Shown: positions 1-32,000, counted from the stretch's first letter. The stretch: DNA of 32,000 nt from Candidatus Saccharimonadota bacterium (GCA_042852035.1 BAAFHK010000001.1:90001-122000); one strand, 5' to 3'. Numbers and translations: made by a program. Notes: generated by a model not told the origin, from the sequence alone.

Positions 1-7
1 ATGTTGC

Positions 8-1024
8 TTAGATTTTTGGGTGAGAAATATATTCCTCACCCTTTTTTGTAATCTGCCTCCCACGTGGAGTTCTTTCGATGAGTCCAATCTGAAGGAGATA
101 TGGCTCTACCACATCCTCAATTGTAGACACCTCTTCGCCGATAACTGAGGCAATTGTAGAAAGTCCAGTCGCTCTTCAGGAGAAAGTATCCCGTAGATGA
201 TGAAGAAGCTTCCTATCGAGAGAATCGAGCCCAGCGATATCTACCCCAAATCCATGAAATATTTCATCGCAATCTTCTTTTGTGGAGATATTTCTTCCAG
301 TAGTCATGTAATCGCGTAGAATTTTCACGTATCTATTTGCGATACGTGGAGTTCCACGAGAACGAAGGGCGATAGAAGTAATCGTATCAGATTCAACCTT
401 CTCTAAAGAAAGAATCTTAAATGATCGTTGTACAATTGTTGCAAGCTCCTCAGTATTATAGAAATCAAGTTTGAGGACATTCCCAAATCGATCTCGGAGA
501 GGATTCGAGAGGCTGGAAAGTTTTGTTGTTGCTCCAATAAGTGTAAATTTTGGAATATCCATTTTAACACTTGTGCTTCCTGTTCCACTTCCAATCATGA
601 TATCAATCTGAAAGTCCTCCATCGCTGAATATAGAATTTCTTCGATTTGTGGCCTGAGGCGATGAATTTCGTCAATGAAAAGAATTTCTCACTCAGTAAG
701 GCTTGTGAGAAGGGAAATAATGTCAGCCTGTTTTTCTATAGCTGGACCACTTGTATGCTTAATTGGTGATCCCATCTCGTGGGCGATTACGGTCGAAATT
801 GTGGTCTTCCCAAGCCCTGGAGGACCATAAAAAAGAATGTGCTCAAGTGGGGATTTTCGTATTTTTGCACTTTGTATAGCCACTCCGAGATGTCTTTTCA
901 TCGATTCCTGTCAGACATACTCGCCGAGAGTCCGGGGGCGGAGAGATATTTCGGAGATGATTTCTTCTTCGCTTTGCTCGGGTTTCACAATTCGTGTAAT
1001 GTCAGAAGAGGATTTGATAGCCAT
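8..1024 (-). CDS. ruvB: Holliday junction branch-migration helicase RuvB
   Basis: Track fragments 176-622, 689-901 and 911-1024 share one frame and join across TGA at 176-178, 689-691 and 911-913. Walker [20 protein letters not shown]-terminal [25 protein letters not shown] at 1022-1024, TAA at 8-10. Confidence 0.95.
18..47 (+). terminator. Intrinsic terminator-like hairpin (GGGTGAG-N10-CTCACCC followed by T6), probably for a convergent plus-strand gene ending before or at the window start
   Basis: 7-bp GC-rich stem at 18-24 / 35-41 followed by TTTTTT at 42-47. It overlaps the last codons of ruvB. Confidence 0.4.
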
Positions 1025-1085
1025 AATAAGGGAGATTATATTAAAAAAATGATGCCAAGCAAAGAGAAAAAATGAATTAATTATT

Positions 1086-1115
1086 AAAAAAGTCAATAAT
1101 AATATTGACTTTTTT
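1086..1115. repeat. Perfect inverted repeat A6-GTCAATA-(ATAA)-TATTGAC-T6 in the ruvB / HD-gene divergent intergenic region
   Basis: Read directly: AAAAAAGTCAATA at 1086-1098 pairs with TATTGACTTTTTT at 1103-1115. It looks like a bidirectional terminator but sits between two divergent gene starts. Confidence 0.5.
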
Positions 1116-1232
1116 AAATAAAAGGTTATTTTTAACTGAATTTTATTCAATACAGTGATTAGTACCGCTAAAACTTCATGATCAGAATCTGCTACTATTG
1201 AGCCGTTTTTTGACCAAAAAGTAGCTCAGGAG

Positions 1233-1862
1233 ATGCCAAACGTATCACTCATAAGGGGTGGTGGTGAAAAACCTGTCCTTTCCGTCTGAAGGGTTCAATT
1301 AGCAATGTCGATGAATCCGAAGGTCTTGGTAGAAAAAATACGGAATCACCCAAAAAATCCCGCCAAGAGACCAATTGATAAGCAAAAACTTAATAAGGCA
1401 ATCAGCCTCGCTATGGGGCTTCCATTTAAGCCAAGAAAATCATGAGAGCCTTATGTGGCACATCTTTTGAGATCAGCACTTTACTATCTCAATTTTTGTC
1501 CAAACCCTACTGTTGATGGCTTGATGGCAGCCATCCATCACGATTCATATGAGGAGCACCCGGAAGGAGTGAATAGAATTCGTTGAGCCATTGGAGTTAC
1601 ATCACTTGAAACCGTTATGGCACTCTCAAAAATGCCACCTAAACTTTTGGAAGAGACTGATCGGAAGTGAATTTCCCCAAGAGTGATGGGGGTTCATAAG
1701 CGAGTACGAAGTGCCCTAGAAAGCCATAGTATGGTTTTAGATGCGCTAAATTTTGAGGCAACTGCCTTCAAACTTGCGAGAAATTCTCTTGAAATGCTCC
1801 CATTTCTGCGGGAACTTGTAACTCCAGAGGTCTTTTTAAGAGAGCTTGCAGCTACGGAATAA
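1233..1862 (+). CDS. HD-domain protein, RelA/SpoT-type (p)ppGpp hydrolase-like (small alarmone hydrolase-like)
   Basis: Invisible in the standard-code track. With TGA=Gly the frame is open from 1122 to TAA at 1860-1862. Motifs SGEPYVAHLLRSAL...MAAIHHDSYEEH...IRGAIGVTSLETVMALSK resemble the HD_4 hydrolase domain. Start is uncertain (ATG 1233 or 1305, GTG 1155). Confidence 0.5.
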
Positions 1863-1934
1863 TCTCTCGTAGGATCGCGTTCACATAACCCAGATGACTT
1901 GATTGCTCTCTGAGAGCTCTATCAGAGGCTTAGA

Positions 1935-2288
1935 ATGTGAAGCGACAATGAAGATCTTTATGAAGAGATGGCTCTTGCAATAGGGCTTTTAGAAACAGAA
2001 GAGAATGATTTGGAACGTCTTTATATAAAAATAAGCTGAGATAGAATAGATAATATAATCGATATTACATCCCTTCGTACTATAGTAAATAGAGCAAAAA
2101 CTGACTCGAGTGTTCTTGCGAAAGCAAAAAAGGCACTTTGAAGTGCTACTAAGACTCTTGTGACTACAAAATTCTACCTTCACCTTGTCAAAACTCGTCT
2201 TAAAAATCCTGAGTTATATGCTGTTTTATCGACTCTTGTTGGTTGGTACGAAAATGAAATATTTTCTCTCGAACTGTCGCTACGATAG
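1935..2288 (+). CDS. Hypothetical protein; open frame resumes immediately after, and in frame with, the TAA of the HD-domain ORF
   Basis: Frame is open from 1863 to TAG at 2286-2288 with 4 in-frame TGA. First ATG at 1935, in-frame TTG at 1899. No recognisable domain. Confidence 0.3.
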
Positions 2289-2290
2289 AT

Positions 2291-2572: not shown

Positions 2573-2828
2573 AGAGTGGATGATGGAGTCAGAATGTTTT
2601 ACTTTTCCAGGATGTTCCAGTTTTTACTGATCGTAAGAAAACTTCTTTGGTAACGATGCTTTCTACGAGAATAAATCAGTCTTCAAGTATTGCAACAATA
2701 CGGGCACAATTTTTTGAGCAGAAATTCATTATTCCAATTGGAATTTCGCTTGCATGAACTGTAATGCGATGTTCACCATAGGCCTCAATAAGAGAGTTTG
2801 CTATAGGAGTTCGAGTAAAGGTGGACAT
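2538..2828 (-). CDS. Hypothetical protein (96 aa)
   Basis: ATG at 2826-2828 overlaps the TAA of the upstream methyltransferase (TAATG). It reads through TGA at 2676 and 2589 to TAA at 2538-2540 and overlaps the next ORF start by 35 nt. Confidence 0.4.
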
Positions 2829-4063
2829 TATAAACGAATTTTTATAATTTCTCTCCCTACAGTCTGAAGAGATCGACGATAGAGGAGACTTCATTTCATA
2901 GTATTGAGCTTCATATGAGAAGGAAGGAGAGGAATAGTTCGAAAACCATACTTTTCGAGAATTTCATAGATTTCCGAAAAATATACAAATCGGTCTTCGA
3001 TATTCCAGAAAGGGAAAGACATAACAATATTCCCTGAAAATTTCAATTTTTTCAGTCAGGAGAAGAAGCCATCGTAAAGTTCAGAAAGTTTTTTTCGTTC
3101 AAGCCTTACTCTTTCAAGATTGATATCTTTACTCGACATTATTTCTCCAAGATATCCTTCACTTGCAATAACTGCTTGGCTTACCCATGAGCTATCTTTT
3201 ACTAAATTAATACGAGCAGCATCTTGCTCGAAAATAGAGGTCTGAAGGTTGCGAAAATCTTTTGTCGGAACCCCGCCAGCTTTTATGATACGCTCTTGCC
3301 AAATCTTCTCTTCTTCTATAAAGTCTGCGAGGCTTTTCTTGCTTGAATGTACCATCCGAGGAGAGATATCACTTCCATAGAGGATGTGTTTTCCCATATT
3401 TGCTCCTTCGATGAGAAATGTTCAGAGTCCACAAAATGGATCATAGAGTCAATCTCTCCCGGTATCTCATGCAATATTTATCATCATCTGACAAAGTTTC
3501 GGAGGCATCATCCCCACGACCATATCACGTGATTTTTCCGTATCTCTTTTTGCATATGCATCCACATCCTGACAGGCGAGAGTGACAGTAAGATAGGATT
3601 TTTCTCCCATTTTTAAGAGATTATATTCACTCTGACTTTTTCCAAGTCTTTCTTTCTTCCATCAAGCAGCATTAATATTCTTATTCTCGGTATTAATTAG
3701 GCGTGCTGAAATTCATTTTTCCCCAAGGGTTTTTTTAATCCTCAGACCAACATGATTTTGCTCAAAATCTTCCCCGTAGACTCAGAGGGCAAAGTGAAAT
3801 TTTCCCTCGGGTTTTCCAATATGTTCTATTACATCCGTTGCAAATTTCTTTGTCTCGGTTTCCTGAAGAACTTTCATGACACGAATTGATCCTCATATAT
3901 TGCGAAAATTTGCTATAATATCTTTTTCTTTGTCGAGGAGTTGAAATATGGTCACTTGTTCGTTATGGCAAACATAGGATTTTTCTCAAAAAATCGAAAA
4001 TAGTTCTGCGAGTGAGAGCTTCCACTCTCGACCAAGAGTAAAGGCGTAATGGTTGTTTGTCAT
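2828..4063 (-). CDS. SAM-dependent RNA methyltransferase, UPF0020/Trm11-like
   Basis: Single 411-codon frame once the many TGA are read as Gly. Motif I LYDPFCGL[G]TFLIEGA (TGA at 3422-3424), MPPKLCQMMINIA, YGSDIS, VIASEGYLGE. ATG at 4061-4063, TAA at 2828-2830. Confidence 0.8.
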
Positions 4064-4230: not shown

Positions 4231-5142
4231 TTAAACATCTACCCATGGTGATATATTAAATCCACTTTGTTTTTTTGCTTCTATGCAGTATTTTTCTATA
4301 GAGTTCCCAAAATAGTCGGGAAGTGACTCTTGGATTTTTCCGATAGTAAAATATCCGATAAGCATCATGAGTGGATAATTGATTCCTTCAAAGAGGGGAA
4401 TATTTATCTGATTTCCCCCATATCGTATCTGGCTTTTATTTTCGAAACAGAGAAATAGTTCTTTCGAATCTGGTACTACTGTAGTTGCATGCTTCATTTG
4501 TTCATGTGAGAAGATATCTCTTGCTACTTTTCGACCAAAAAGTTCGATAAATTTTACTTCAAACATTTCTCTCAGGAGGACAAATTCATTAGGAATAACG
4601 AGAAAGAACGAAGTCAAATTTCCTATCTCTATATCCTTCAGAATTCATTTTAAGAGGGGAGTGAGTATATCTGAAAGATAGGCCTCAAGATCTGTAAGTG
4701 AACTTTCTGGATATTCTGCGAGCATATATCCAAAATAGGTTGAGGTATTATATGTGTAAGGTTCACGTATTTTCGGCATGACTATACTTCCATCAGCAAT
4801 AGTTCTCCCGCTACTTTTTTCACTGGATGAGATAAGAAAGGTATTTTTCCCAAGCTTTTTAGCATTCTCAAGAATAATTGGTGCATGTTTTTCTCCGCTT
4901 GCTGAGACAACAACCACGTCTGTAATAGAAGAGATATTCTCGATTTTTCCCATAAATTCACTTTCTCCCGCAAAATAGGCAGGACTATTTCGAAAGAGAA
5001 TGCGACCTGTATAATAACCGTTTCAACTTCAGACAACGAGAGGTGTCTTAAATTGTTTTATATCAAGCTTTGGAAGGTTCTTGGCGCCTTTAAAACACTC
5101 AATAGTAGACAAGACGATTTCACAGAGTGATGGGTATTGCAT
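4231..5142 (-). CDS. SIS-domain-like protein (sugar isomerase / phosphosugar-binding fold), function uncertain
   Basis: Fragments 4231-4617 and 4645-4953 plus upstream sequence join across TGA at 4645, 5023 and 5029. VVGSGNGYYTGR and VVVVSASGEKHAPIILENAKKLGKNTFLISS resemble SIS motifs. ATG at 5140-5142, TAA at 4231-4233. Confidence 0.5.
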
Positions 5143-5181: not shown

Positions 5182-5217
5182 ATTCGCAAAAAATAATCCC
5201 GTTTTCACGGGATTATT
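5182..5217 (-). terminator. Intrinsic terminator after PiT gene
   Basis: AATAATCCCG (5192-5201) pairs with CGGGATTATT (5208-5217), followed on the minus strand by a T-run. The stem includes the pit stop codon. Confidence 0.7.
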
Positions 5218-6244
5218 TGTTAACAAAGAAAGAAAAAGTTAAAAATAAACCATATGCTATCGCACATGCCATAGGTATGGTAAATATCCATGCCCATACG
5301 ATTCTAAATGTCATTCCCCATTTTACGGCACGAGCATTTTTTGCAGATCCTACTCAAGAAATAGCACCAGTGATAGTATGCGTAGTAGAGACAGGGACTC
5401 CAAGTGCTGAAGCAGTAAACAGGGTGATTGCACTTGCTGTTTCTGCAGCAAATCCATCTATAGGGGTGAGTTTTACGATTTTTGATCCCATGGTTTTCAC
5501 GATTCTCCAACCTCATGTCATAGTTCCAAGAGCAATCGCAACGTAAGCCCCGATAATTACCCACATAGGAATCGGTGCTCATTTTTCCAGAAGATGTACC
5601 GAAAGAAGAAGGCTCATGATGATTCCCATTGTTTTTTGGGCATCATTTGATCCATGACCGAGTGAATATAGTGCTGATGAGGCAAGCTGAAGAAAACGAG
5701 AAGCCTTATTCATTATAGATAGGGAAAAATTCTTTCCAATCCACATCGCAAGAATGAGAAGTGTAAATCAGAGAGCAGCACCCATGAGTGGTGCGAGAAA
5801 GATGAAAATCAATGTTTTTGTCCATCCAGAAGCAATCACAACACTCCATCAACCATTGGCAAGAGCAGCACCGAGGTATCCTCCAAGAAGAGCATGAGAG
5901 GAGCTTGTTGGAAGACCAAGCCACCAAGTAATAAGGTTCCAAGAAATGGCACCAAGAAGTCATGCAAAGATTACAAGCGGAGTTACATAAGATATATCAA
6001 TCATCCCTTTTCCAATAGTTTTTGCTACCGCAGTACCAACAACGAATATTGCCACAAAGTTAAAGAATGCAGCCCAAAGCACCGCCATACGAGGCGAAAG
6101 TACTCGAGTAGCAACAACCGTAGCGATAGAGTTCGCTGCATCATGCATTCCATTCGTAAAATCAAAAGCAAAGGCAACAAGAATAATAAAGGCAACAAAC
6201 GGGTAATCTGTTACCAAATGTGTAATAAATGAAAAGAATTCCAT
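5213..6244 (-). CDS. pit: Inorganic phosphate transporter, PiT (PitA) family
   Basis: N-terminal [18 protein letters not shown] and central [15 protein letters not shown], ...[14 protein letters not shown]. Fragments join across TGA at 5960, 5849, 5767 and 5579 among others. ATG at 6242-6244, TAA at 5213-5215. The plus-strand ORF 5157-5546 is its antisense shadow. Confidence 0.9.
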
Positions 6245-6276: not shown

Positions 6277-6906
6277 TTAGCTCGCCTTTAACTTGATACC
6301 CTCGATAGTATTTGCTGCTTGTTCAAAGCTATCCATAGCAGCTTCCATATTTTCGATAGCAACCCTCCATTTCATAAGTGTAATTGGGTCTTTTTCTTTC
6401 GTGAAGATTTCTCTGATATTTTTTACATAAATATCATCACCCTGACCCTCAAGAGTATGGATTGCAACTATAACTTTTGAAGTATTAATGTGCTTATTTT
6501 TCTTCTTTCCAAAAAGCGCTTTCAGAAGTTCGCCAATACTCTCTGCTGACTCATCATAAAGCTGAGCAAATTCATCGATACAAGCTCGTTTCTCAGTAAT
6601 ATCATACATATAAAAACTTTGGATAACATTCTCAAGATCGTCGACAACATCATCAAGTCCGACAACAAGTGCGTGAAGATCTTCTCGATCATATGGGGTG
6701 ATGAATGCAGTTTGGAGTTCGTTCAGAATCCTATGTGTAGCATCATCTGCTTGTTCCTCGATAATTCGAGCCTTATGTGCGAATCGTTCAAAATCACCGA
6801 AGTTATTTCGGAACTCATGCACGAGTTTAACCATGTCCTTAATGCTTTCGGCAAGTTCGAGGAAGAGGTTGTCGAACTTATTGTTCTGAGGAAACAGGAT
6901 ACTCAT
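6277..6906 (-). CDS. DUF47 / PhoU-like phosphate transport regulator (PiT-associated)
   Basis: Intact 209-aa ORF directly upstream of the PiT gene, the classic DUF47-PiT pair. Helical, acidic sequence with ITPYDREDLHALVVGLDDVVD. Confidence 0.85.
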   Translation of the reverse strand: MSILFPQNNKFDNLFLELAESIKDMVKLVHEFRNNFGDFERFAHKARIIEEQADDATHRILNELQTAFITPYDREDLHALVVGLDDVVDDLENVIQSFYMYDITEKRACIDEFAQLYDESAESIGELLKALFGKKKNKHINTSKVIVAIHTLEGQGDDIYVKNIREIFTKEKDPITLMKWRVAIENMEAAMDSFEQAANTIEGIKLKAS

Positions 6907-7014: not shown

Positions 7015-7467
7015 TTAGATATTTGGTATAAGTACTTTCATTCATGATTGTTTCTTTGCTGCTTTAAATTCAGAAGAGAGTCAATTATTTCGAGCAGCAA
7101 GGTAGACTCATTGGAGCTCACAATATCCTAATAACTTTGTTCATTGATATCCATTCATTACCTTACTCAAAAATCTAGCGTCAACCGTTCATGTTCTTTT
7201 GATGTGTTTTTTGGTTATATCATAGTAGAGTTTTGTTGCCCTTCATCATCAGCATACAAGAACGGCTCAAAGAAATGCCGTAAACGCAATCACCGTTTCT
7301 ATCTCTCCTCAGTAATAAAGTGTGGTTCAGAGTGTTGTGTCGGCAACTAAAAGAACTCTATTTTTTATATTTCATGAAAGACATTCCACGCTAAATTTTC
7401 AAAATCTTTTTAGAGTTTCAATTCGAGATTCAGGAGCAGTTTTTTTAAAATCATCTAGCCTTCCCAT
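7015..7467 (-). CDS. Hypothetical Gly-rich protein with extreme TGA usage
   Basis: No TAA or TAG for 158 codons on the minus strand (7015-7488). ATG at 7465-7467 overlaps the pnp stop region; alternative GTG at 7387-7389. 13 in-frame TGA including the triple TGA-TGA-TGA at 7243-7251 (VC[GGG]RAT). TAA at 7015-7017, followed by a terminator. Confidence 0.4.
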
Positions 7468-9668
7468 ACTGCCGTTATAACATTTTCATTACTATTTGTT
7501 TCTTGAGGACTGTTGCCTCATTCTATGATTTTCTCAAGTCCAATCCGCCCCTTTTCCTTATCGACTGAGTAGACTTTTACTTTGACGACTTCGCCCACTT
7601 TTGCGACATCATTCACATTCGCGATTCGTTCTTTGACTCCGAATTTCGAAATGTGAATCATTCCTTCTTTTCCTTTAGTGAGTTCGACAATGGCACCAAC
7701 CGTATCAAGAATTTTTACAATTTTTCCTTCGTAGGTGTCACCTACTTCGATATCTTTGAGAATACCCTTGATGAAGGCGAGGGCAGCCTGACCTGCTTCT
7801 TGAGTTTTTGCGGTGATGGTACAGTGTCCATCATCTTCGAGATTGACCTCAACACCAAAATCTTTCTCGATACCTTGGATCGTTTCTCCACCCTTTCCGA
7901 TAACTTCACGCATTTTTTCTTCTGGTACAAATACTGCGAGGAGAAATGGTGCATATGGTGAGAGTTCACTTCGTGGACTTGAAAGGCATTTCTTCATCTC
8001 TCCCATGATGTACCCACAAGCATCTATGGATTTATCGAAGACATTCTTTATAACTTCCATCTTGAGTCCAGCAATTTTACAGTCCATCTGGAGTGCAGTA
8101 ATCCCCTTATCAGTTCGAGCTACCTTGAAGTCCATATCTCCGAGGAAGTCTTCTTGAGCTTGTATGTCAGCGAGGATTTCATATTTTCCAGTATCTTCAT
8201 CATAGATCATTCCCATTGCGACTCAGGCAACCATAGCCTTGATTGGAACTCAGGCATCCATGAGTGACATAGTTGAACCACAGACTGATGCCATCGAACT
8301 CGACCCATTACATGTTGTCGTTTCAGAAACAACACGCATCATGTATGGAAAATCTGCCTCATCTGGGAGGACTGGTTCGAGTGCTTTCTCAGCGAGACGT
8401 CCGTGACCAACCTCACGTCGTCCTACTCCACGAAGTGGCTTCACTTCACCTACAGAAAAAGGAGGGAAGTTATAGTGGTGGATGTATCGTTTCGTATCCT
8501 CCTCATACATATCGTCAATAATCTGGATGTCGCTTGGTCCACCAAGCGTTGTTACTGAGAGAACTTGTGTTACTCCACGCTCGAAGAGGGCAGAGCCATG
8601 AGTTCTTGGAAGGACTGGAGCAGTCGCACGTACAGGGCGCACCTCATCAACACGACGTCCATCGAGGCGAGTTTGGGTGCTGAGTACAGTATTCCTCATA
8701 TGTCCTGATACCACTTTTTTCACGCTATCAGCGATGTCTCCCATTTTTGGAGTATTTGTTTCTTCGTCGTATCAGAGTTTTTCAGCAACTGATTCCACGA
8801 GATTGTGAAGTGCATCATGGAATTCGAGCTTTCCGAGATTATAGAGAGCAACGATTTCTTCCTCGCTCACGAGTCATTTTACTTTCTCGATAACCTCAGT
8901 ATCAGTATCGACAACCGTAAGTTCTGTTACTGGAAGGGCATGAACTTTGCTATATTCTTTCATGAAATCATTTTGTGCTTCACAAAGCTCCTTGATGATG
9001 CTATGTGCAAATTCGAAAGCGCGCACCATGAGGTCATTGCTTACTTCCTTTCCTTGACTCTCTACCATAGTAATAGCATCGAGCGTTCCAGCAACTGTGA
9101 GATCGAGATGAGCATTCGTGAGCTCATCGAATGTTGGATCAAAAATGAATTTCCCACCCTCGTCTGAGGCAATACGAACTCAGGCAACAGGTCCTTCGAA
9201 CTCTTTCACTCCTGCGAGCATAATCGAGAGGGAAGCGCCAGTAACTCCATACCATCCAAAATCAGAGAGTCCAGAGGAGCTCATAATCGTCGAAATAATC
9301 TGAGTATCAGTACGGGTATTTTTCGGGAACATTGGACGAATTGGACGATCAATGACACGACTATTGAGAATCGCAGCTTCACTCGGTCGCCCCTCACGTT
9401 TTTGGAATCGGTTTCCACCAATCTTTCCTCCGGCATAATATTTCTCCTGGAACTCTACCGTGAGTGGGAAAAAATCTCCATCTTTTGGATTTCCAATCCC
9501 TGTGGTGGTGAGAAGGTAGTTTCCATCTTCATCTTTGATTACTACTGAACCTGTCGCAAAGAGTGCGAGTCGACCTGATTCGAATGTAATCTTTTTGCCC
9601 GCAATCGTATACGACTTCGTGACAATAGCACGTTCGAGCGCGTGCTTATCTTTGAGAGCTACTATCAT
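7455..9668 (-). CDS. pnp: Polyribonucleotide nucleotidyltransferase (PNPase)
   Basis: Fragments 7518-8216, 8250-8744, 8874-9068 and 9180-9668 are all in one frame. The junctions read LMDA[G]VPIKAMVA[G]VAMG and EGPVA[G][11 protein letters not shown] and S1 domains at the C-terminus. ATG at 9666-9668, TAG at 7455-7457. Confidence 0.95.
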
Positions 9669-9957: not shown

Positions 9958-10896
9958 ATGAATTGGGTCACTTGGATCCTTGTCATCTGTCTCCTCGTGA
10001 GCGGATGTAATGGTGAAGGAAGCACCGAAAAACCTTCTCCCGTAGAGTCCGCGTCAGCGACTACTCGTGATGTGCCTCTCGGAAGCTGTCCGAAGGATGC
10101 TCTGACACTCGTGTCATGGAACGTCATGAACTTCGGATCGAAGAAAACAGATGAGACCATCAAACGCATGTCTGACATCCTCCTCTCTCGAGGACTGATC
10201 TATCGAAATCAAGAAAAGATTCGAGCGAATATCATCCTCCTTCAAGAGGTGAACGCCGGATCTCGTACGGGTGGAGTCCAGACAGTTGCTCGTCTCGGGT
10301 CTGCCCTCGGGCAAGATTGGGACTCGGTGACGAGTGACAGTACCTCGGGTGATGGAGTCGAGCGGTATGCTATCCTCTGGGAGAAATCTGCTTTCGAGGT
10401 GAATCGTCGAGATGCTTATCTGGTGCAAGATCTCCGTGATGCGATTGATCGAGAACCCTTCGGTCTCAGGCTCACTCGAGGTGGACAATCCTTTTGGGTT
10501 TATAGCTACCACGCAGTACCGACGGCAAAAAAACCCATACGGGAAATAAAAGTCGTCAGAGGTTCGGCAGAGCTCGAGTCACGAAGTGCTGCTATCCTTG
10601 CTGGAGACTTCAATCTCGGTCGCACATCGGTGGTGGATATCTTCGCGGGATGGACTGATCACATCGACGGGAAAACCTCACTCAAGTCAACGATCGGAAA
10701 GGATGGAAGCTACCTCTCCTACCAATACGATCACATCCTCACAAAGGGTGGTGTACGAGTCTGTGAGAGTGGCATTATCGACTTCGTGTCACTCCATTTT
10801 TCTCCTGTTGATGTCGAAAACCTGAGACGTGCTCGTGAAATAAGCGACCACCTGCCCGTCTACATACGATTCACTCTGAAACCAGAAGGGAACTAA
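9958..10896 (+). CDS. Secreted endonuclease/exonuclease/phosphatase (EEP, DNase I-like) family lipoprotein
   Basis: Intact 312-aa ORF with no TGA. Signal peptide with lipobox LVSGC. LVSWNVMNFG, LLQEV, AGDFN and C-terminal SDHLPV are typical EEP motifs. Tandem stops TAA-TAG. Confidence 0.85.
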   Translation: MNWVTWILVICLLVSGCNGEGSTEKPSPVESASATTRDVPLGSCPKDALTLVSWNVMNFGSKKTDETIKRMSDILLSRGLIYRNQEKIRANIILLQEVNAGSRTGGVQTVARLGSALGQDWDSVTSDSTSGDGVERYAILWEKSAFEVNRRDAYLVQDLRDAIDREPFGLRLTRGGQSFWVYSYHAVPTAKKPIREIKVVRGSAELESRSAAILAGDFNLGRTSVVDIFAGWTDHIDGKTSLKSTIGKDGSYLSYQYDHILTKGGVRVCESGIIDFVSLHFSPVDVENLRRAREISDHLPVYIRFTLKPEGN

Positions 10897-11100: not shown

Positions 11101-11177
11101 TGGAGCAGGTAATGGGACTCGAACCCACAACAGCCGCCATGGCAAGGCGGTACTCTAGCCAATTGAGCTATACCTGC
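11101..11177 (-). tRNA. tRNA-Gly (anticodon GCC), CCA encoded
   Basis: Cloverleaf folded by hand: acceptor GCAGGTA/TACCTGC, anticodon stem CCGCC/GGCGG with loop TTGCCAT, T-arm GTGGG-TTCGAGT-CCCAT, 3-prime TCCA. Confidence 0.9.
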
Positions 11178-11291: not shown

Positions 11292-11858
11292 CTATTTTTT
11301 TGAAAATTGCTTCTTTAGCCAATCTGCCCCCATTCGGAGGAGATCGTCCTTATAGTCACCATCATTATTTTTATCGAGGAGATTCACGGCGAGGGATTCA
11401 AGCATTGAGCGAGAGTTCTTACTGGTACTCGAGAGGACTCATGAGAGATTATCGAGGGTGATCCCGCCTTTTGATTTCTCTTCTCCGAGGGCTCCGAGGA
11501 GGAGTGGAGCAATGGCTGCGAGTGCACTGCCAGCTTGGCTCTTCGAGACTCCACTTTCTCGGGCAATCGTATCAGCAGTCGTCTCTTTCTCATCTCCGAA
11601 GATGTGACCGATAATCTTTTGTCCGTCAGTATCATCATCATCGATATCAGTCTTTGCACTTGTATGCTTATCGAGGGCATCATAGAGAGCGCTTGCTCAT
11701 TCTTGAGACTCTGCATTTTTTGAGAGCTTTTCGAGGAGGAGCGGGGCTCCGAGGGCGATGAGTTTTTTGGCTTGAGCATTATCGACTCAGAGCTTGGCAG
11801 CTATTTTATCAGTAGCACCCGAGGCAATAGCAGATTGGAGAAGGCTTGAGATATCCAT
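11292..11858 (-). CDS. DUF937 family protein
   Basis: 188 aa after reading 3 TGA as Gly. Repeated ...A..L.A.APLLLG.L units and C-terminal LLDKNNDGDYKDDLLRMGADWLKKQF are typical of DUF937. ATG at 11856-11858, TAG at 11292-11294. Confidence 0.7.
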
Positions 11859-13340: not shown

Positions 13341-13414
13341 TGGTGCTCCCGGCGAGAATCGAACTCACGTTTTGAGCTTCGGAGGCCCATGTTCTTCCAC
13401 TATACTACGGGAGC
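13341..13414 (-). tRNA. tRNA-Arg (anticodon CCG), CCA encoded
   Basis: Acceptor GCTCCCG/CGGGAGC, anticodon stem TGGGC/GCTCA with loop CTCCGAA, T-arm GTGAG-TTCGATT-CTCGC, discriminator A plus CCA. Confidence 0.9.
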
Positions 13415-14446: not shown

Positions 14447-14461
14447 CTTGAATATTACTAA

Positions 14462-21868: not shown

Positions 21869-22174
21869 CTACTGATTTTTTTCTTCCCCCCACCATTCCG
21901 CGACTTTTAAGAGTTTCTTTATAAGTCCTTCACCTTTTGCTGATAGACCATAACTTCCTTCAGTTTTACATTTCTCGAGAACTCCTAGATCTACAAGCTC
22001 ATTGAGTCGATCAGTTAGTATCTTGGTATTTGCCTCACCAACTCATTTCCTAATATCTGTAAATGTATGAGCTCCGTGATAGATGGCATTCAAAATAAAA
22101 AGAGACCACTTCTTTCCAATAAGAGAAAAAAGACTTGTTGCATTTGGACATGAACATTTGGGTTGCTTCACCAT
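21869..22174 (-). CDS. HxlR-family winged-helix transcriptional regulator
   Basis: CPNATSLFSLIGKKWSLFILNAI..GAHTFTDIRK[G]VGEANTKILTDRLNELVDLGVL. 101 aa. Divergent from the nitroreductase gene. Confidence 0.8.
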
Positions 22175-22276: not shown

Positions 22277-22897
22277 ATGGCTCTAATAGATTCACTTAAA
22301 TGGAGATATGCGACAAAGAAATTTGATACGGAAAAAGTAGTAATGAATGAAGACCTCGATACAATACTTGAGGCGATACGTCTCGCTCCTGCTTCACTTA
22401 ATCTTCAAGCATATAAAATCCATGTAGTAAAAGATCAAGAAACTAAGGATAAGATTCAAGCGGTTGCATGGAATCAGGCACAGATTTGAACTTGTTCACA
22501 CCTTCTTGTATTTACTGCGCGTACAGATTTGATTGATGCAAAGGAGGAGCTTTTCTCTATGCTCTCTGGATGAGACGCGCACGTGAGAAATCAACTTGCC
22601 GGATATGAAGGGATGGTGAGTGGACTCATTACAGGACTTGAGGCATCAAATAGCGCTCTTGCATGGTCAGCGAAACAATCCTATATTGCTCTTGGATTTG
22701 GTATGGTTGCGGCAGCAGAGCTTCGCATAGATAGTTGTCCGATGGAAGGATTTGATGGGGGGAGTGTTGGGGAGATTCTTTCTCTTCCTCCTTCTGAGAC
22801 GGCGGTTGTGATGCTTCCGATAGGATATCGAGCTGAAGGTGAGGGTCCTCGCAGTCCTGAGAAGGTAAGACTTCCGAAAGATGCACTCTTCGTATAA
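22277..22897 (+). CDS. NAD(P)H nitroreductase family protein
   Basis: Fragments 22277-22489 and 22583-22897 are in one frame joined across 2 TGA. N-terminal RYATKKF, LEAIRLAPASLNLQ and C-terminal SCPMEGFD are nitroreductase-fold motifs. Confidence 0.85.
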
Positions 22898-23487: not shown

Positions 23488-24384
23488 TTATGTATTGTGT
23501 ATGGGGCAAACTTCTGGTTCAGGATCGGTATCAAGATGGAGAGTGATGGTTGCTCCAAGAAAACGGGCTCATAAGGCTGACTCAAGAGATTCAGACACAT
23601 TATGAGCATCCTGGAGAGATATTTTTTTGTCACGGAAAACGATATGTGCTTCGATAAATATATCATCTCATGACCGTCTTGTTTTAAGGAAATGGTAGGA
23701 TTCAAGTCATTTCTCACTCTTTAATAAACTATCAATTTCCTTTATTTCCTCTTCGCTTAATGATCGATCAAGAAGCATATTGATTCAATTCCAAAGGATT
23801 GGCAGCGCGTTTTTAAGTATCCAAAGAGCTATGGCAATAGCAAAAATCGAATCTGTCCACCATAAACCGAAGAATTTCGTAAGTATAAGAGCGAGAAGTA
23901 TTCCTATATTCATGACAAGATCTGATGAATAATGGAGTGCATCTGATTGAATAAGAAGTGACTTTTGTATTTTTGAGACTCGCAAAAAATTCCACATAAT
24001 GAGAATGGTTCAGAGTATTGCAAGAATCATGGCAGAAATTTCAATACCCGAGATTTCAGGATGTTTTTGGGCTGTAAAATTTACTATGCCGTTATATCAA
24101 AGGAATAGTCCAGAACCCAGCACGATACTTCATTCGAAAATTGCAGCAAATCCTTGAACTTTCCCAAGGCCATAAGAATAGTTTCGAGTTTTATCCTTTT
24201 CTGAAAGCCATAGTGCTCAGGCATTTACAGAGGAAACGAACATATCCATAAATGAATCAAGAGCCGATCAAAGAATAGCAAGAGATCCTGATAAGAAACC
24301 TATAACTGCCTTTAGAATTGCTAAAACAAGAGAGATAATCAGTGCAAATCTGATTGCGAATTTAGGGGTGCTAGGAAGTTTCAT
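23488..24384 (-). CDS. Cation diffusion facilitator (CDF) family divalent-metal efflux transporter
   Basis: 298 aa checked codon by codon. ...LGSALDSFMDM..., HYSSDLVMNIG, and a cytoplasmic C-terminal domain ...FIEAHIVF...ITLHLD. ATG at 24382-24384, TAA at 23488-23490. Confidence 0.85.
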
Positions 24385-24475
24385 AAAAGACAGATATAAA
24401 ATGAGCATATTCATTTTTTATCTTTCATCAATCAAAACTCTCAAGTTAAACTCATTATATGGGTTTATATTTTTT

Positions 24476-25252
24476 TTAATGTTGAGTATATTCACTGGTT
24501 TCGGTCGATTCTTCATGATGATGGTGCTCTGCAAATAATGACATAAAGAGTACTCCTATAAGAAATGCGAGGATGGAGAGGTATTTGTTTTTTGTCGTTG
24601 AGTGAATGACAGGTAAGAGGTCAGTCGTTGCTATGTAAAGTAATGAACCACCAGCAAATGCTGCAGCAAGACCAACGATAACTTCACTTACATTTGACAG
24701 CATAAAATCTGAAATAAAGTACCCCAATGGTGCTGCGAATGCAAATAAGGTAACCAAGACTATTTGAAATCGTTTCTGTAACTTTGATTCACGCATAAGT
24801 GCCGCAAGGGAGAGCGAGACAGGGATTTGATGGACTCATACTCAAAAAAGTATCGCATATCCTGCCGCTTCTGAGAGTCACATTCCGGCACGAATGCCAA
24901 CTCCATCAAGGAGTGTATGACTAAATATCGCAAGAAAAGATACGACTGCCACATGATCATAGTGTTCGTGTGGGTCTTCGTGTGCATGATCACCATGTGA
25001 GTGATCATGTCGATGAGGAGTAAGAAGCTCCTCAATAAGATAGATACTAATAAAACCACTGAGAAATGCATATACAGCAAGCTCTGTTTGTTCGAGTGAT
25101 TCTGGGAAAATATGTACCAATGAAACAGCAAGCATCGATCATGCACCAACGGCAATAAGAAGGTTTAAAAGCGCTGTATTAATTTTTTGAAAAAAATAGA
25201 GCAGAAGTCATGTAGCTGAAATTGCCGTGAGAATAGAGAGAGGAAGTAACAT
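24476..25252 (-). CDS. ZIP family zinc transporter (ZupT-like) with His-rich loop and tail
   Basis: Fragments 24476-24796 and 24878-25135 plus the N-terminus are in one frame. His-rich loop HRHDHSHGDHAHEDPHEHYDH, HTLLDGVGI, VHQIPVS, C-terminal EHHHHEE. Confidence 0.85.
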
Positions 25253-25276
25253 AAATATGAATTGATTTATAATGAA

Positions 25277-26227
25277 TTAAGATGCAAAGAGTACTGATCT
25301 ACCCGCCGTGCTACACTCATCGAGGAGTTTTCTGATGAGAGCTTCATCCATATTTTTCCCGATAAAAACAAGCTGAGAATTATTCGGTACACTTCGATGC
25401 CACGGTTCCATAGTGAATCTCGCTCACGCTTTTTGTATGAGCCACCATTCTCCGGGTTTTTCCGTGAACTCAACAAATCACTTTACTCGATAGGCATCGG
25501 TTGTGAGATCTTCGAAGAATTGGTCGAGTTCGCGGGCTTTCATTTTTCCGTTCGGGGTATAGGAGAAAACTTGGAGGTCCTCATGACCATGTTTGCTTTT
25601 TTCTTTTCCTTGCTCATACATCTCCGGATAGAGGGAAAATCTTTCGGTTGAGAGGAGGAGGTTAAGGTCTACTTTTCCGTATTCGGTATAAATAATAGGA
25701 GCAAATGCATTCACCCTTTGTATGAGTCATTCAAGATATTTTTTCTTAGATGATTCAATAAGGTCACACTTGTTCATGATTATAAAATCTGCAAATTCAA
25801 GCTGATCCAGTGCGATATCTGGATTTGAAATGAGTAGGTTTTCAAAATTGAGCGCATCAACCAGGCATATTATGGAATCAAGTTTTACCCTTCAGCCCAT
25901 GTCATTCATAAGAAAAGACTGCGCTATCGGAAGGGGTTCGCTTGCTCAGGATGCCTCGATTACAATCGCATCAATCTTTTTGCCACTATCAAGGAGTCTT
26001 TCAATCGCATCCATCCAATCTTTGCGAACAACGCAACACATACAACCGTTCGAGACTTCGATGAGCTCTTCGCTTGATTTTTCGATGAGGTCAGAATCAA
26101 TAGAAGTTTCTCAAAACTCATTTTCGACCACCGCAATTTTGATACCATGATCCCCAGTGAGTATGTGGTTGAGGAGAGTAGTTTTTCCGCTCCCAAGAAA
26201 ACCAGTGACGATAGTTATAGGTATCAT
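25277..26227 (-). CDS. CobW/G3E-family metallochaperone GTPase (ZigA/YeiR-like)
   Basis: P-loop [21 protein letters not shown] metal motif, NKCDL, CobW C-terminal domain. Frame verified with no TAA or TAG. ATG at 26225-26227, TAA at 25277-25279. Confidence 0.9.
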
Positions 26228-26230
26228 GAG

Positions 26231-26578
26231 TTAGTTTTTACAGTGGTTACAATTTTTTATGAGTTCTATGGTTTCCGATTTTATGGAATCAGGAGCAAGT
26301 GGAGTATGTTTTTCTTCGATGCTGTGGCAATTTATGCAGCATTTGAGCGTCACAGCATCCTCCTTTTTTTTGCACTGACAGAGAGTAAAATATTTTTCCC
26401 CGTCATACTCGACCCGATGAATGATTCACTCACTCATGAACTTATCGAGGATTCGATAGAGTGTTGTTTGATTCATTTCATGTGTATGGATAAAGCATTC
26501 TTTCAGTTTCCGAAGAGAACTTGTTTTTACATTTTCTAAAAATGAAAGAATATGTCTTCTGTGAATTGTGGAAAGCAT
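26231..26578 (-). CDS. Fur-family metalloregulator, Zur-like by genomic context
   Basis: HRRHILSFLEN...NQTTLYRILDKFMSE[G]IIHRVEYDGEKYF and CxxC pairs (CINC, NCNHC). Its stop is 3 nt before the cobW-like ATG. The ATG at 26576-26578 is favoured because the alternative ATG at 26620 lies inside the predicted promoter. Confidence 0.75.
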
Positions 26579-26585
26579 AAAATGG

Positions 26586-26622
26586 ATTCTATTTAAAATG
26601 CATTTTTTTTGCAAATGCATTT
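26586..26622 (-). promoter_or_regulatory. Promoter TTGCAA-N17-TAGAAT overlapped by two copies of the palindrome AAATGCATTT (candidate Fur/Zur operator)
   Basis: Minus-strand -35 equals plus 26609-26614, -10 equals plus 26586-26591. Palindromes at 26596-26605 and 26613-22 (that is, 26613-26622). The -10 element ends 7 nt before the ATG at 26578. Confidence 0.45.
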
Positions 26623-26640
26623 TTTTATATCTTGAAGGTA

Positions 26641-26663
26641 CAAAAAAACCTGCCGAAGCAGGG
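26641..26663 (-). terminator. Intrinsic terminator after the first Fur paralog
   Basis: CCTGC-CGAA-GCAGG hairpin followed on the minus strand by T7. Confidence 0.7.
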
Positions 26664-26671
26664 AATTGTGT

Positions 26672-27046
26672 TTAGTGAATCATACAGGCATTACAGTTTT
26701 TCATTCGAGCAAAGGTGTCGCTTGAAATGTATGGATTTGCAAGTTTTGAGTGTACGTCATAGATAGCTCAACAATTCTCACAAAAACTTATTGTTATGGC
26801 ATCATTTGGTCCAGCGTGTTCACACTGACATGGGAATATTACTCGTTCTCAAGCAACAGTCATCTCGTGTATAAGTCCTTGATCACGAAATGCGTCAACA
26901 ATTCGATAGAGTGTGGCGAGATTCATTCCTGGATGTCATTTCTTTCCGACAAGCTGCTTTTTTAAATCAGAAAAGGTAATTCGATTTGCTTGACTCAGTG
27001 CTTCGACAAATCTTTTTCGTGGTTCGGTAATTCGTGTTTCTGCCAT
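26672..27046 (-). CDS. Fur-family transcriptional regulator (second paralog)
   Basis: Only visible with TGA=Gly. RITEPRKRFVEAL...NLATLYRIVDAFRDQGLIHEM...FPCQCEH...FCENC[G]...NCNAC. ATG at 27044-27046, TAA at 26672-26674. Confidence 0.75.
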
Positions 27047-27108: not shown

Positions 27109-27198
27109 ATTTTTGCGCAGAAAATTATTTTTGTACTTTTTGCACAAGGAGATTCAATGAGATTTATCAACCTTAAAGGAAAATATTCTTCTCAATTT

Positions 27199-28281
27199 TT
27201 ACCAGTTCCAGACCGTTCCAGCAACTCAAACCTCAAAAATCTGTCATTGATATTCTGGTCTTTTTTTTGCTTCAGCAAGATCATCCAATGGATCATCTTG
27301 ATTGTCATCGGCGAGGTCAAAAGTAGAATGGTGGATTCCTATAGCTTTTTTGACCTTAAGCTCTCTTTGTATTTGCATACCTTCAAATGGGTCGGTATGC
27401 ACTGGAGCCATGAACCAACGAGGCTTGTAAGCACCGATAGGAATCAGTCCAAAATCAAAACCATCATCAAATTTTGAAGCAACCTTTTTTATGAATTCAC
27501 CATATCAAGTATCTCAGGCAAAGTAGAGTGATTTTCATGCAATCTCGATTCGAAAACCTCACCAGAGCGTTCTATTTCTGTCAGTAACTCAGCGAGCAGA
27601 AAAGTGCTGCGAAGGGAGATATGTGATTGTTGCTTTCCCATTTTCTGTATACTCTTCACTATCCCACCAATCCATCTCGATAACATGATTGATTGATCGT
27701 TTTTTGAGGTACTTTTTATTCCCAAGACCAGTGTATATAACAGGATTATCTCGTTCTTCCAATTTTTGGAGGGTTGGTACCTCCATATGATCATAATGAT
27801 TGTGAGAAAGAAGGATGATATCTATTTTTGGAAGGTTTTCGAATGTGATTCCAGGGTCTTGATATCGTTTTGGTCCAATCCATGACCATGGGCTTGATCG
27901 GTTATTCCAAACTGGATCAGTAAGGATATTGAGTCCATCGGTTTGGATGAGATATGTTGCATGTCAGACATTCGTAATACGAAATCATTTATCATTGGTT
28001 GCTTGAGGTACAACAGGGGTTATTTCTCGTTTTATCCACTTTCTTTTATTTCTGTGGAGAAGCCAATAAATAAGTCCTCCTTTTCTTTCTCGTCACCATT
28101 CTATTTGAAGGGATTCTCGAGGAGACCATCAAATATTGTAAAAATGTTTTCCATCAAAATGATCTGTTTTTTTACCAGGAAATTTGTCGCTCGCATAAAA
28201 ATGGTTCGCTACTAATAGTGCTATACCAAAAAGTATACCACTGTAGAATATCGAGAAGAGAAGTGTAATAATCGTATCCAT
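27199..28281 (-). CDS. MBL-fold metallo-hydrolase (NAPE-PLD-like) with N-terminal TM helix
   Basis: Frame verified codon by codon. LLSHNHYDHM (HxHxDH), GHATYLIQTDG, FAGDTGY, IGIHHSTF. ATG at 28279-28281, TAA at 27199-27201. Confidence 0.85.
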
Positions 28282-28283
28282 GT

Positions 28284-28308: not shown

Positions 28309-28359
28309 GCCAAACCTTGGCGGAGTATAAAGAAGTTTAGCATTTCTGCAAGCGAATTC

Positions 28360-29484
28360 CTAAACAAAGAGAGTTTTCAGAACAAAGAAAATAGTTCCAG
28401 CAAGGACGGTTGAAACAGGGAGTGTGAGAACCCAAGCCATAAGAATTGCTTTAATGGTATCTCCTTGAAGTCCACCTTTTCCGTGTTCATGAGCCATAGT
28501 TCCAGCTACTCCAGATGAGAGAATGTGTGTTGTTGATACAGGGAGATGAAGGTGCGATGCTGATTCTATGGTAATGGCTGTCATGAGAGAAGCGACCGTT
28601 GCTTGAGCATAGGTAAGTTTATCTTTTCCGATTTTTTCCCCGATGGTGATAACGATACGCTTCCATCCAACCATGGTTCCGAGTCCGAGAGAAATAGAAA
28701 TCATGATAATTACCCAATATGGAATTTGCTCTGTTCCACTAATAATACCAGCGATATTATAATCTGCTGGGAAGAATGCTATAAGGATAAGCATAGCAAG
28801 TCCGACTCATTTTTGACCGTCATTTGATCCATGTGCAAAACTCACGAATGCACTTGAAGTTATGAGAGTGCTTTTGATCCAAGTCTTTGGATATTTATTC
28901 CAGAAACGCCCCGGATGTTTAAAGAAGTCCTTATTTGTTACATAAAGATGAAGGATATGCATAGCACCAAAAGCAAGAACAAATCCCACAAAAGGAGAAA
29001 CAAGGAGAGATTCAAGAGTTTCAATAACTTTATGCCAAGGAAGAAGTACTGAGTTATCTGAAAATTTCATCACAAGCCCTACTCAAAGGATTGATCCAAT
29101 AAGCGTATGTGAGCTCGATGCTGGGATACCAAGATACCAAGTTCCAAAATTCCAGATAATTGCTGCAATAAGTAGAGAAAGTACGGCACAAATCCCAAAG
29201 GACATGCTAGAGGCGGCTATTTTATCGAGAGGAAGAAGCTTCATAATACCAATAGCAACTCAAGTTCCTCAAACAACTACACCGAGAAAGTTAAAGAATG
29301 CTGCGAGAAGTACGGCTTTTTTTGCTGAGAGTGAATTTGAATAGATTACTGGAGCAACAGCATTGGCTGTATCATGAAAGCCATTAATAAATTCAAAGGC
29401 ACATACGAGCGCAAGACAAAGGCTTGCAAAAATAAGAGGAGCGTCCATAGGTAAAAAAGGATAAATACCGAAATATTCTCTCAT
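28360..29484 (-). CDS. pit: Inorganic phosphate transporter, PiT family (second paralog, no DUF47 partner)
   Basis: [27 protein letters not shown][G][18 protein letters not shown]. Fragments 28360-28794, 28807-29073 and 29269-29484 are in one frame. ATG at 29482-29484 (alternative ATG at 29448), TAG at 28360-28362. Confidence 0.9.
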
Positions 29485-29632
29485 AATTCGTGATTAAATG
29501 CAAAAAACTCAATCTTTTTTGTCGTTCTTTTGCTTTTTTATAAGAAATTTTTATTATGGAGACTACGAATCGTGAATATTCACTATACGTGGAAGAGAGT
29601 ATCTTCATCTTATTTTCTCATAATTAAAACTT

Positions 29633-31456
29633 ATGTGTTGAGTTTTTGGTTATCTGGGTCGATCTGGAAAAGCTGCTCAAGAGGTTATCGCGTGACTTCA
29701 ACGTCTCGAGTATCGATGATATGATTCCGCGGGCATATGTGTACTTGATGAGAATCATGCTATAGAGGTGATTAAGGCAGTAGGAAAAGTTGGGAATCTG
29801 AAAATGAAAACGGATTCTTATAATTTTTCTTCCTATCATGCGGGAATTGGGCATACTCGGTGGGCCACTCATGGAGGGGTAACTGAGGACAATTGTCATC
29901 CACATATTTCTCAGTCAGGAAGATTTGTCGTCATCCATAATGGTATAATCGAGAATTATAGCGAACTGAAATCTGAACTTATCCAGAAGGGGTATACATT
30001 TTATTCGCAGACAGATACAGAAGTTACGGCAAAGCTCTTCGAAGATCTTTTTGATGGGAATCATATTACTACTCTTCAGAAACTCATTAAGAAGATACAT
30101 GGTGCGTATGGTCTTGTGTTTCTAGATCGAGAGCATCCAGATAAAATATTCTGAACCAAAAAGGGAAGCCCGATGGTAATCGGGTTTGGGAAGTGAGAAC
30201 GATATGTTTCGTCCGATTATAGGGCTCTTATTGGTCTTATTGATGATTATATTATTCTCGAAGACGGAGATTTGTTCCTCATGACCCCAGAAACATATAC
30301 AATCCTTTCTGAAGATACTCGAGTACAGAGGGAAACACATACTATTGATGAGGCTGAGAAACCTGCTGAACTCTGAGACTTTGAGCACTTTATGCTCAAA
30401 GAAATATATGACCAAGGATCAGTTATACGAGATGTATTTCGTGGAAGGGTTGATTTCGAAAAAGCAACTCTCCACTCAGAGACTCTCGAAGCTATCGGTC
30501 CTGATGACTATGATCGAGTGGTGATTGTGGCATCGGGGACCAGTTACCATGCTTGACTCATGGGGAAATACTATCTTGAAGAATATGCTGATCTTCCGAC
30601 TGATGTTATTGTTTCTGCAGAATTTAAGTTCAAAAAGAAATTTATTGATCCGCGTACCCTCCATGTCTTTGTTTCTCAGTCAGGAGAAACTATTGATCTT
30701 CTTGAGTGTGTAAAAATCGTGAAAGATCAGGGTGGTCATATTTTTGGTATTGTAAATGTGCCTGGATCAGCGATTGCCCGTACCTGTGGAAGGGGACTTT
30801 ATACTCGAGCTGGTATAGAGGTGTGAGTTGCGTCTACGAAAGCCTTCTCTACTCAGGTAGTGACTTTCCTTATTATGGCTCTCCATTTCGGGAAAAAGAG
30901 AAACCTCGATTATAGAAAATATCGAGATATTCTTTCTGCACTTGAACGGCTACCAGACGCTATTGAATCCCTTATTGCTAAAAAGTCTGAGATTCAGGCG
31001 GTCGCAAATACCTACTCTCAGTATAAAAACTTCTTTTTTATCGGTCGTAATGTCGAGCTTCCAATCGCAATGGAGGGATCTCTCAAGCTGAAAGAAATAT
31101 CATATATTCATTCAGAGGCGTATGCGAGCTGAGAGTTAAAACACGGTTCTATCGCCCTCATTGATGAAGATTTTCCTACGGTTATCGTCAATGGAGCTAC
31201 GTCACTCTATGAGAAAAATGTGAGTTCTGTCCAGGAAATTAAGGCGAGAAATGGGAAGGTAATTGGCGTCATTTCTTCTCTCGATAAAAAGAAAGATCTC
31301 TATGATGCAGTTTTAGAATTTGACTCGCTTCATCCAGAGGTGGACCCAATTCTTGAAGTAGTCATCCTCCAGCTCTTCTCCTATTTTGTAGCTCTTCATC
31401 TCGGACGTGAGATAGACAAGCCGAGAAATCTTGCAAAATCTGTAACCGTTGAATAA
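29633..31456 (+). CDS. glmS: Glutamine--fructose-6-phosphate aminotransferase
   Basis: Starts MC[G]VFGY with the Gly encoded by TGA at 29639-29641. GIGHTRWATHG, two SIS domains, C-terminal KPRNLAKSVTVE. Five track fragments in one frame. TAA at 31454-31456. Confidence 0.95.
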
Positions 31457-31464
31457 TTTTAATT

Positions 31465-32000
31465 ATGCGCATTATCTCCTGGAACGTAAACGGTATCCGT
31501 GCGACCTATAATAAATGAGAACTTGGAAAATTCATCGAGGCTCATGATCCAGATGTTATCTTTATGCAGGAAATTAAGGCAACTCTAGATAAGCTTCCGG
31601 AGGAGTTAAGAGCTCCAGAGGGGTATGAGGCATTTTATAATTCAGCAGAAAAGCCCGGATATGCAGGGACGGGTATCTGGGTTAAAAATGAATATAGAAA
31701 GTATATTCATTCGATTCAGACAGGATTTGAAGGTGACCCAACCGCCAATGAATGACGAGTTTCACACCTTATCTTAGAAAAGGATGGAGAAATTTTTGAT
31801 ATATTTGGCATCTATTTTCCGAACGGTGGGAAAAGTGAGGAGGCTTGGAAGGGGAAAATCGTATTCTATCATGAATTTGCGAAACGCATGGATGAGCTTC
31901 GTTCTTTAGGGCACTATGTTCTTTGGGGGTGAGATCTTAATTGTGCGCATCATGAAATTGACCTTGCACGACCAAAGGAAAATGATGGAAAAATCTGATT
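31465..32000 (+). CDS. xth: Exodeoxyribonuclease III (partial, continues past the window end)
   Basis: MRIISWNVNGIRA, DVIFMQEIK, GYAGTGIW, W[G][G]DLNCAHHEIDL. TGA=Gly at several sites. Confidence 0.9.

Follow-up and report, generated by a model that had tools for sequence, protein, structure and literature searches.

UGA as a glycine codon in a 32-kb chromosomal segment assigned to Gracilibacteria

We analysed a 32,000-bp stretch of DNA (BAAFHK010000001.1:90001-122000, assembly GCA_042852035.1; hereafter the window), in which TGA breaks up most reading frames when the standard genetic code is applied. With TGA read as an unknown residue (X), about 30 genes follow one another with hardly a gap, most of them on the minus strand; they include ruvB, pnp, lysS, hom, thrC and glmS and several transporters of phosphate and metals, and the window also has two tRNA genes (Table 1). 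Our results indicate, with a probability of about 97%, that the window is a chromosomal segment from a member of the Gracilibacteria (BD1-5/GN02, now Candidatus Altimarinota) that uses NCBI translation table 25, in which UGA encodes glycine and termination is left to UAA and UAG. Under the standard code, hom, the M23 peptidase, one Fur paralogue and an HD-like orphan have no in-frame open reading frame (ORF) of at least 60 amino acids (aa), and most other genes are fragmented. An earlier reading of this DNA, made without database searches (the sequence-only reading), had proposed the glycine code and listed these four genes and thrC as absent from a standard-code call; this proved correct for all but thrC, which keeps a 92-aa fragment.

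The number of stop-to-stop ORFs of at least 300 aa in the window rose from 2 with the standard code to 21 with TGA as a sense codon, and stood at 2 and 3, respectively, in controls where TAG or TAA was dropped as a stop instead. With TAA and TAG as the sole stops, an ORF of that length was absent from all 200 shuffled versions of the window. The annotated genes hold 151 in-frame TGA triplets and not a single TAA or TAG, while each of the three triplets occurs in the hundreds in the other two frames of the same DNA. TGA is found in frame in 26 of the 28 tabulated ORFs, and the 27 complete ones end in TAA (21) or TAG (6), in agreement with the prior claim that these are the sole stops. The TGA positions lie inside Pfam matches that mostly cover the full model, as for RuvB_N (1-159/159), PHO4 (1-350/350, twice), cobW (1-179/180), nitroreductase (1-167/167) and the five domains of PNPase. 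In the window, TGA makes up 1.7% of all codons and 22.7% of the glycine-family codons; counting it as glycine raises the glycine content of the residues from 5.9% to 7.6%, which is closer to the usual content of bacterial proteins. Each TGA cited by the sequence-only reading was confirmed as an in-frame TGA in exactly the peptide context described, namely those of PNPase (9180, 8250 and 8223), the methyltransferase (3422), the Walker A motif of the zeta-toxin-family kinase (14306 and 14297), GlmS (29639) and Hom (17868, 17865 and 17859).

In addition to the reading frames, we examined the residues that face TGA in orthologues, a tabulation that had been set beforehand as the test of the code. 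A LysRS-based scan with one genome per GTDB species yielded 28 related loci of 4-21 kb, from metagenome-assembled genomes (MAGs) mostly named Gracilibacteria, and 52 standard-code Patescibacteria loci with 55-64% identity. Table 11 fragments nearly all of the 28 Gracilibacteria loci, the oral GN02-type ones (L012, L014 and L015) less so, and leaves the 52 standard-code loci unfragmented. The test came out in favour of glycine. In the 52 standard-code lysS genes, the residue at TGA146 is Gly in 52/52 and that at TGA222 in 51/52, TGA43 lies in a variable segment, and Trp faces TGA at none of the 144 aligned LysRS residues. E. coli GlmS (4amv), which shares the terminal ...SVTVE with the window protein, has Gly at eight of the nine TGA sites, including the N-terminal MC[G] and the YA[S/A][G]ELKHG motif, and Ala at the ninth. 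Residues 473 and 482 of PNPase, in LMDA[G]VPIKAxVA[G], are Gly in 3/3 structures in the PDB, where residue 163 is Gly or Ala.

When Hom was aligned with 109 distant homologues, each of less than 50% identity, Gly prevailed at residues 19 (106/107), 22 (103/109) and 351 (102/109); further sites were residue 47 (Gly 83, Ala 22), residue 190 (Gly 82, Ala 20), residue 295 (Gly 79) and residue 20, which is N or K in most homologues. The previous statement that TGA sits where homologues have an invariant Gly thus holds for conserved sites in PNPase, LysRS, GlmS, Hom and ThrC and fails at Hom residue 20, the second TGA of the motif GAT[G][G]V[G]G. ThrC residues 43, 304 and 391 are Gly in every PDB structure whose alignment reaches them. 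When Hom, ThrC, the CobW/YjiA protein and the NAPE-PLD-like hydrolase were compared with PDB structures, TGA faced Gly in conserved positions and a mixture of residues in variable ones. Three of the six CobW sites are Gly in E. coli YjiA, and 4qn9 has Gly at five of the eight sites aligned with the metallo-beta-lactamase (MBL)-fold protein, the other three being Thr, Trp and Ala. Taking the best PDB match for each of six proteins, Gly faces 27 of the 44 aligned sites and Trp one.

The codons used by the Gracilibacteria relatives were equally informative. The synteny alignment covered 26 of the 28 tabulated ORFs, and the codons opposite the window's TGA in the 28 loci were GGN in 54%, TGA in 17%, Ala codons in 6% and Ser codons in 4%, with TGG at 0 of the 728 aligned codons. 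Conversely, of 555 TGA sites in the relatives, 381 face a Gly codon or TGA in the window. Opposite the window's GGN codons the relatives have Gly in 74% and TGA in 7%, and opposite its TGG they have Trp in 82%; overall, genuine TGG is aligned with Trp in 82-97%. The pattern recurs in individual genes: GGN or TGA occupies residues 37 and 111 of ruvB in 7/7 relatives, residues 38 and 40 of the conserved protein at 4231-5142 in its orthologues from six relatives and all three TGA sites of xth that the relatives cover, and the TGA in motif I of the methyltransferase (3422-3424) is GGN in 10/10. The glycine-family codons facing TGA (GGA 35%, TGA 24%, GGT 23%, GGG 11%, GGC 7%) resemble those at ordinary glycine sites. 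We considered whether TGA arose mainly from GGA and rejected this, the relatives' codons facing TGA showing no enrichment in GGA. Judged by these alignments, TGA is a synonymous member of the glycine family that is freely exchanged with GGN, and neither a Trp codon nor a stop.

These data bear directly on table 4, the code of Mycoplasma, Spiroplasma and several insect endosymbionts, in which UGA encodes tryptophan. Table 4 resembles table 25 in having UGA as a sense codon and release factor 2 (RF2) dispensable, and it recovers the same long ORFs; moreover, public pipelines have placed Trp at TGA in the very genes of the window, in a copy of hom (P0122) and in one of the ORF at 1233-1862 (P0241). 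However, TGA in the window aligns with Gly and never with TGG, Trp is missing from the LysRS sites and nearly so from the best PDB matches, genuine TGG retains its Trp partners, and Trp would break the Walker A, Rossmann and GlmS N-terminal motifs, all of which require Gly. We therefore regard a tryptophan code as extremely unlikely. The least credible of the explanations weighed, at odds we consider negligible, is that the TGA triplets are true stops, whether in a decaying, pseudogene-rich genome, through sequencing or assembly errors, or as scattered selenocysteine or read-through sites. It would account for the fragmented standard-code ORF track and for nothing else: the frames are broken by TGA alone, never by TAA or TAG, and the TGA codons fall in conserved Gly columns where they are shared or swapped with GGN over 28 independent assemblies. 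For selenocysteine, 151 sites in 26 of 28 ORFs are far too many, and the aligned residue is Gly, not Cys. With UGA as glycine and only UAA and UAG as stops, the broken ORFs of the standard-code track are therefore an artefact of annotation, as had been claimed at the outset.

Some observations weigh against the glycine code or fail to speak for it. Residue 249 of the MBL-fold protein, a single site, is Trp in the human homologue 4qn9, and some database homologues carry Trp at TGA columns, of which at least two (P0122 and P0241) are table-4 mistranslations from the same organism. About 30% of the TGA sites lie in variable columns (Ala, Ser, Asn, Asp, Glu) and are uninformative on the residue. 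ARAGORN and Rfam found no tRNA with a UCA anticodon in the window, where the only tRNAs are tRNA-Gly(GCC), which serves GGY codons and does not decode UGA, and tRNA-Arg(CCG); nor did a tRNA scan of the 28 related loci reveal one, the tRNAs detected being Gly(GCC), Arg(CCT), Gln and Glu. Lastly, the support for this particular genome is at the level of DNA and sequence and not of protein.

By analogy with the literature on the clade, UGA would be decoded by a dedicated tRNA-Gly with anticodon UCA, RF2 (prfB), which otherwise reads UGA as a stop, would have been lost, and release factor 1 would terminate at both UAA and UAG. A tRNA-UCA-Gly is expected in recoded members of the clade, with G1:C72, C2:G71, G3:C70 and U73 as the tRNA-Gly identity elements of the UCA decoder (PMC8629427), and all BD1-5 genomes examined have prfA and lack prfB (PMC6851277). 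Two nominal Gracilibacteria without tRNA-UCA-Gly and with RF2 keep UGA as a stop (PMC8629427), and the incorporation of Gly at UGA in a BD1-5 bacterium was confirmed by proteomics (PMC4032931).

The sequence-only reading had left the contig in either Gracilibacteria or Absconditabacteria. For Absconditabacteria, Shulgina and Eddy (2021, PMC8629427) predicted a variant of table 25 in which CGA and CGG, both rarely used, also encode Trp, with CGG possibly having this meaning in some Gracilibacteria too. What the window has in common with that extended code is the reading of UGA as Gly and a place within the candidate phyla radiation (CPR)/Patescibacteria; it differs in that CGA and CGG stand for Arg and in the presence of a tRNA-Arg(CCG) gene. 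With 120 uses, CGA is the most frequent Arg codon of the window; it is aligned with Arg at 77% of the relatives' sites and at 341 of 477 standard-code sites, and it occupies invariant positions such as LysRS R81, R284, R497 and R508, each of them Arg in 52/52 standard-code genomes. The 17 CGG codons include conserved sites, for example GlmS R76 and PNPase R708, and these face Arg codons and never Trp. Given the tRNA-Arg(CCG) and the alignment of both codons with Arg, the lineage has not undergone the CGA/CGG-to-Trp reassignment.

Further evidence on the source of the DNA came from its closest relatives and from the public record. The lysS genes closest to that of the window belong to Gracilibacteria MAGs, with 70-88% amino-acid identity, and include that of the oral GN02-873. 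The DNase I-like protein encoded at 9958-10896 shows 100% identity to NCBI GAB0174215.1 (locus tag HHAS10_00940), a record named 'MAG: Candidatus Altimarinota bacterium'; the taxid of Candidatus Altimarinota, the current name for Gracilibacteria, is 363464, which Shulgina and Eddy placed under Gracilibacteria (PMC8629427). That the window might derive from Absconditabacteria (SR1), the sister lineage in which UGA is also Gly, is compatible with table 25 being common to both clades (PMC8629427). We nevertheless consider it very unlikely, since the 28 closest LysRS genes are mostly from MAGs named Gracilibacteria, the source record bears a Gracilibacteria taxid, and CGA and CGG are found at Arg sites beside a tRNA-Arg(CCG). 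The LysRS neighbours, the record name and the use of CGA and CGG as Arg place the contig in Gracilibacteria with plain table 25, narrowing the earlier placement to one of its two candidates. The window matches this code (the SR1 and Gracilibacteria code of NCBI) in its in-frame TGA at conserved Gly columns, its use of TAA and TAG as the only stops, its moderately low GC content (40.2%) and its placement.

UGA has been known as a glycine codon in Gracilibacteria since 2013, with proteomic confirmation in 2014. The reassignment in the window is real and belongs to this already described code, so that biologically it is nothing new, and its practical value lies in annotation, as table 4 would put Trp in place of Gly at all 151 sites. 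The NCBI entry for Hom (HHAS10_01020, 374 aa) has G at 13/13 TGA positions, so the deposited translation already takes TGA as Gly, and the copy from another public assembly pipeline (P0122) has W at the same 13/13, a table-4 mistranslation. We also noted that the table-4 copies P0122 and P0241 place spurious Trp in the Gly columns of homologue alignments. The modest additions made by the window are the per-site tabulation, the retention of CGA and CGG as Arg, and a strong gradient in the use of TGA from gene to gene.

The share of TGA among the Gly codons rises from 7% in lysS and 9% in pnp through 18% in glmS and 29% in thrC to 48% in hom and 70% in the DUF4145 gene; of the 20-40% first estimated for hom, thrC and glmS, only the value for thrC falls in that range. 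The lowest TGA use in the 28 related loci was again that of pnp, glmS and lysS, which have 0-6 TGA per 40-68 glycine-family codons and are richer in GC than the loci in which they reside. These observations suggest that conserved or highly expressed genes tend to avoid UGA as a Gly codon. Within the window, the correlations of TGA share with GC at third codon positions (GC3; rho -0.37, P 0.08) and with conservation (rho -0.28, P 0.2) were weak.

The DNase I-like gene stands out in this respect, with no TGA among its 27 Gly codons (P ~0.001), a GC content of 0.51 and a GC3 of 0.50, compared with about 0.40 and 0.30 for its neighbours. Its orthologues in two recoded relatives, L007 (14135-15199) and L082 (8275-9192), are likewise free of TGA (0/21 and 0/22), with a GC content of 0.51-0.52 where the remainder of the locus has 0.40. 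The copies of the window, L007 and L082 lie in one shared neighbourhood, by tRNA-Gly(GCC) and pnp or by the DUF937 gene; the identity is only 44-63% for this gene, in comparison with 67-85% for the flanking genes. A further copy in L081 (10001-10894) is also TGA-free and GC-rich, in flanks whose code is ambiguous; on account of that ambiguity the TGA at its natural stop was not counted as firm. In L007 the first in-frame TGA of the gene falls exactly at the C-terminus of the window copy, and standard-code homologues often end at that point, likewise with TGA. A metagenome scan for relatives of the gene returned four loci, all of them apparently standard-code. The gene could bear the mark of gene flow out of standard-code bacteria into a code-25 lineage, with a donor TGA stop that is now read through, or of selection for readability in both codes, a tentative proposal to which we give rather low odds. 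It could equally be that, more plainly, the DNase gene is highly expressed and that depletion of TGA and raised GC are general to housekeeping genes here. If the gene-flow proposal were true, recoding would be a leaky rather than a firm barrier to gene transfer.

Table 1 Genes and tRNAs of the window, with TGA read as a sense codon.
Feature	Coordinates	Strand	In-frame TGA	Supporting matches and remarks
ruvB	8-1024	-	3	Pfam RuvB_N 1-159/159, RuvB_C, AAA_lid_4
Orphan ORF, HHD motif	1233-1862	+	4	Sub-threshold HD_4, E = 0.069
UPF0020-type methyltransferase	2828-4063	-	10	Pfam PF01170
Conserved protein, no Pfam match	4231-5142	-	3	Orthologues in 6 relatives
PHO4 phosphate transporter	5213-6244	-	6	Pfam PHO4 1-350/350
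DUF47 / PhoU_div protein	6277-6906	-	0	7 Gly codons; Pfam PF01865
pnp (PNPase)	7455-9668	-	6	9% of Gly codons; five Pfam domains
DNase I-like (Exo_endo_phos) lipoprotein	9958-10896	+	0	27 Gly codons; Pfam
tRNA-Gly(GCC)	11101-11177	-		ARAGORN; Rfam tRNA, 64 bits
DUF937 protein	11292-11858	-	3	Pfam PF06078
Membrane protein, weak Excalibur-like motif	11874-12599	-	1	Orthologues in 9 relatives
Vut_1 / YhhQ-type transporter	12662-13303	-	3	Pfam PF02592 1-151/152
tRNA-Arg(CCG)	13341-13414	-		ARAGORN, Rfam
Zeta-toxin-family kinase	13604-14446	-	5	Two TGA in Walker A A[G]AP[G]AGKS; Pfam PF06414
DUF4145 protein	14462-15181	-	7	70% of Gly codons; Pfam PF13643
lysS (class II LysRS)	15202-16788	-	3	Pfam
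hom (homoserine dehydrogenase)	16800-17924	-	13	48% of Gly codons; Pfam, PDB, 109 homologues
M23 peptidase	18034-18684	-	7	Pfam PF01551
GNAT-domain protein	18693-19757	-	10	Pfam PF00583
thrC (long-form threonine synthase)	20142-21761	-	12	Pfam Thr_synth_N
HxlR-family regulator	21869-22174	-	1	Pfam
Nitroreductase	22277-22897	+	2	Pfam 1-167/167
CDF cation-efflux transporter	23488-24384	-	9	Pfam Cation_efflux, ZT_dimer
ZIP zinc transporter	24476-25252	-	5	Pfam
CobW/G3E GTPase	25277-26227	-	6	Pfam
Fur-family regulator 1	26231-26620	-	1	Pfam FUR
Fur-family regulator 2	26672-27046	-	3	Pfam FUR; longest standard-code ORF 36 aa
Metallo-beta-lactamase-fold protein, NAPE-PLD type	27199-28281	-	11	Pfam
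Second PHO4 phosphate transporter	28360-29484	-	4	Pfam PHO4 1-350/350
glmS	29633-31456	+	9	Pfam
xth (exonuclease III family), cut by window end	31465-31998	+	4	Pfam Exo_endo_phos

The Rfam scan of the window detected the two tRNAs and nothing else. For the orphan ORF at 1233-1862, the label of HD hydrolase given by the sequence-only reading could not be confirmed: Pfam returned no match with X at the TGA positions, and HD_4 only below threshold with Gly substituted. Its lone database relative is the same sequence (P0241) with Trp at TGA. An ORF of 141 codons (1863-2288, plus strand) continues in the same frame after the single TAA that ends the orphan; it has no database relatives and was for this reason not taken as a sign of read-through of that TAA. 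The region 1233-2288 most likely comprises one real orphan gene followed by non-coding sequence.

The zeta-toxin-family kinase and DUF4145 genes adjoin each other between lysS and the tRNA-Arg gene (13604-15181), and none of the 28 related loci contains a counterpart of the DUF4145 gene. Both hom and a long-form thrC (16800-17924 and 20142-21761, minus strand) are present in this CPR genome. The distant Hom homologues with source names were mostly from DPANN archaea (Woesearchaeota, Pacearchaeota and Nanoarchaeota) and Scalindua, with 37-42% identity, a distribution that hints at a possibly unusual origin of hom. Finally, the minus-strand genes at 23488-27046 form an apparent metal-homeostasis cluster consisting of the CDF efflux transporter, the ZIP importer, the CobW/G3E GTPase and two adjoining Fur regulators.

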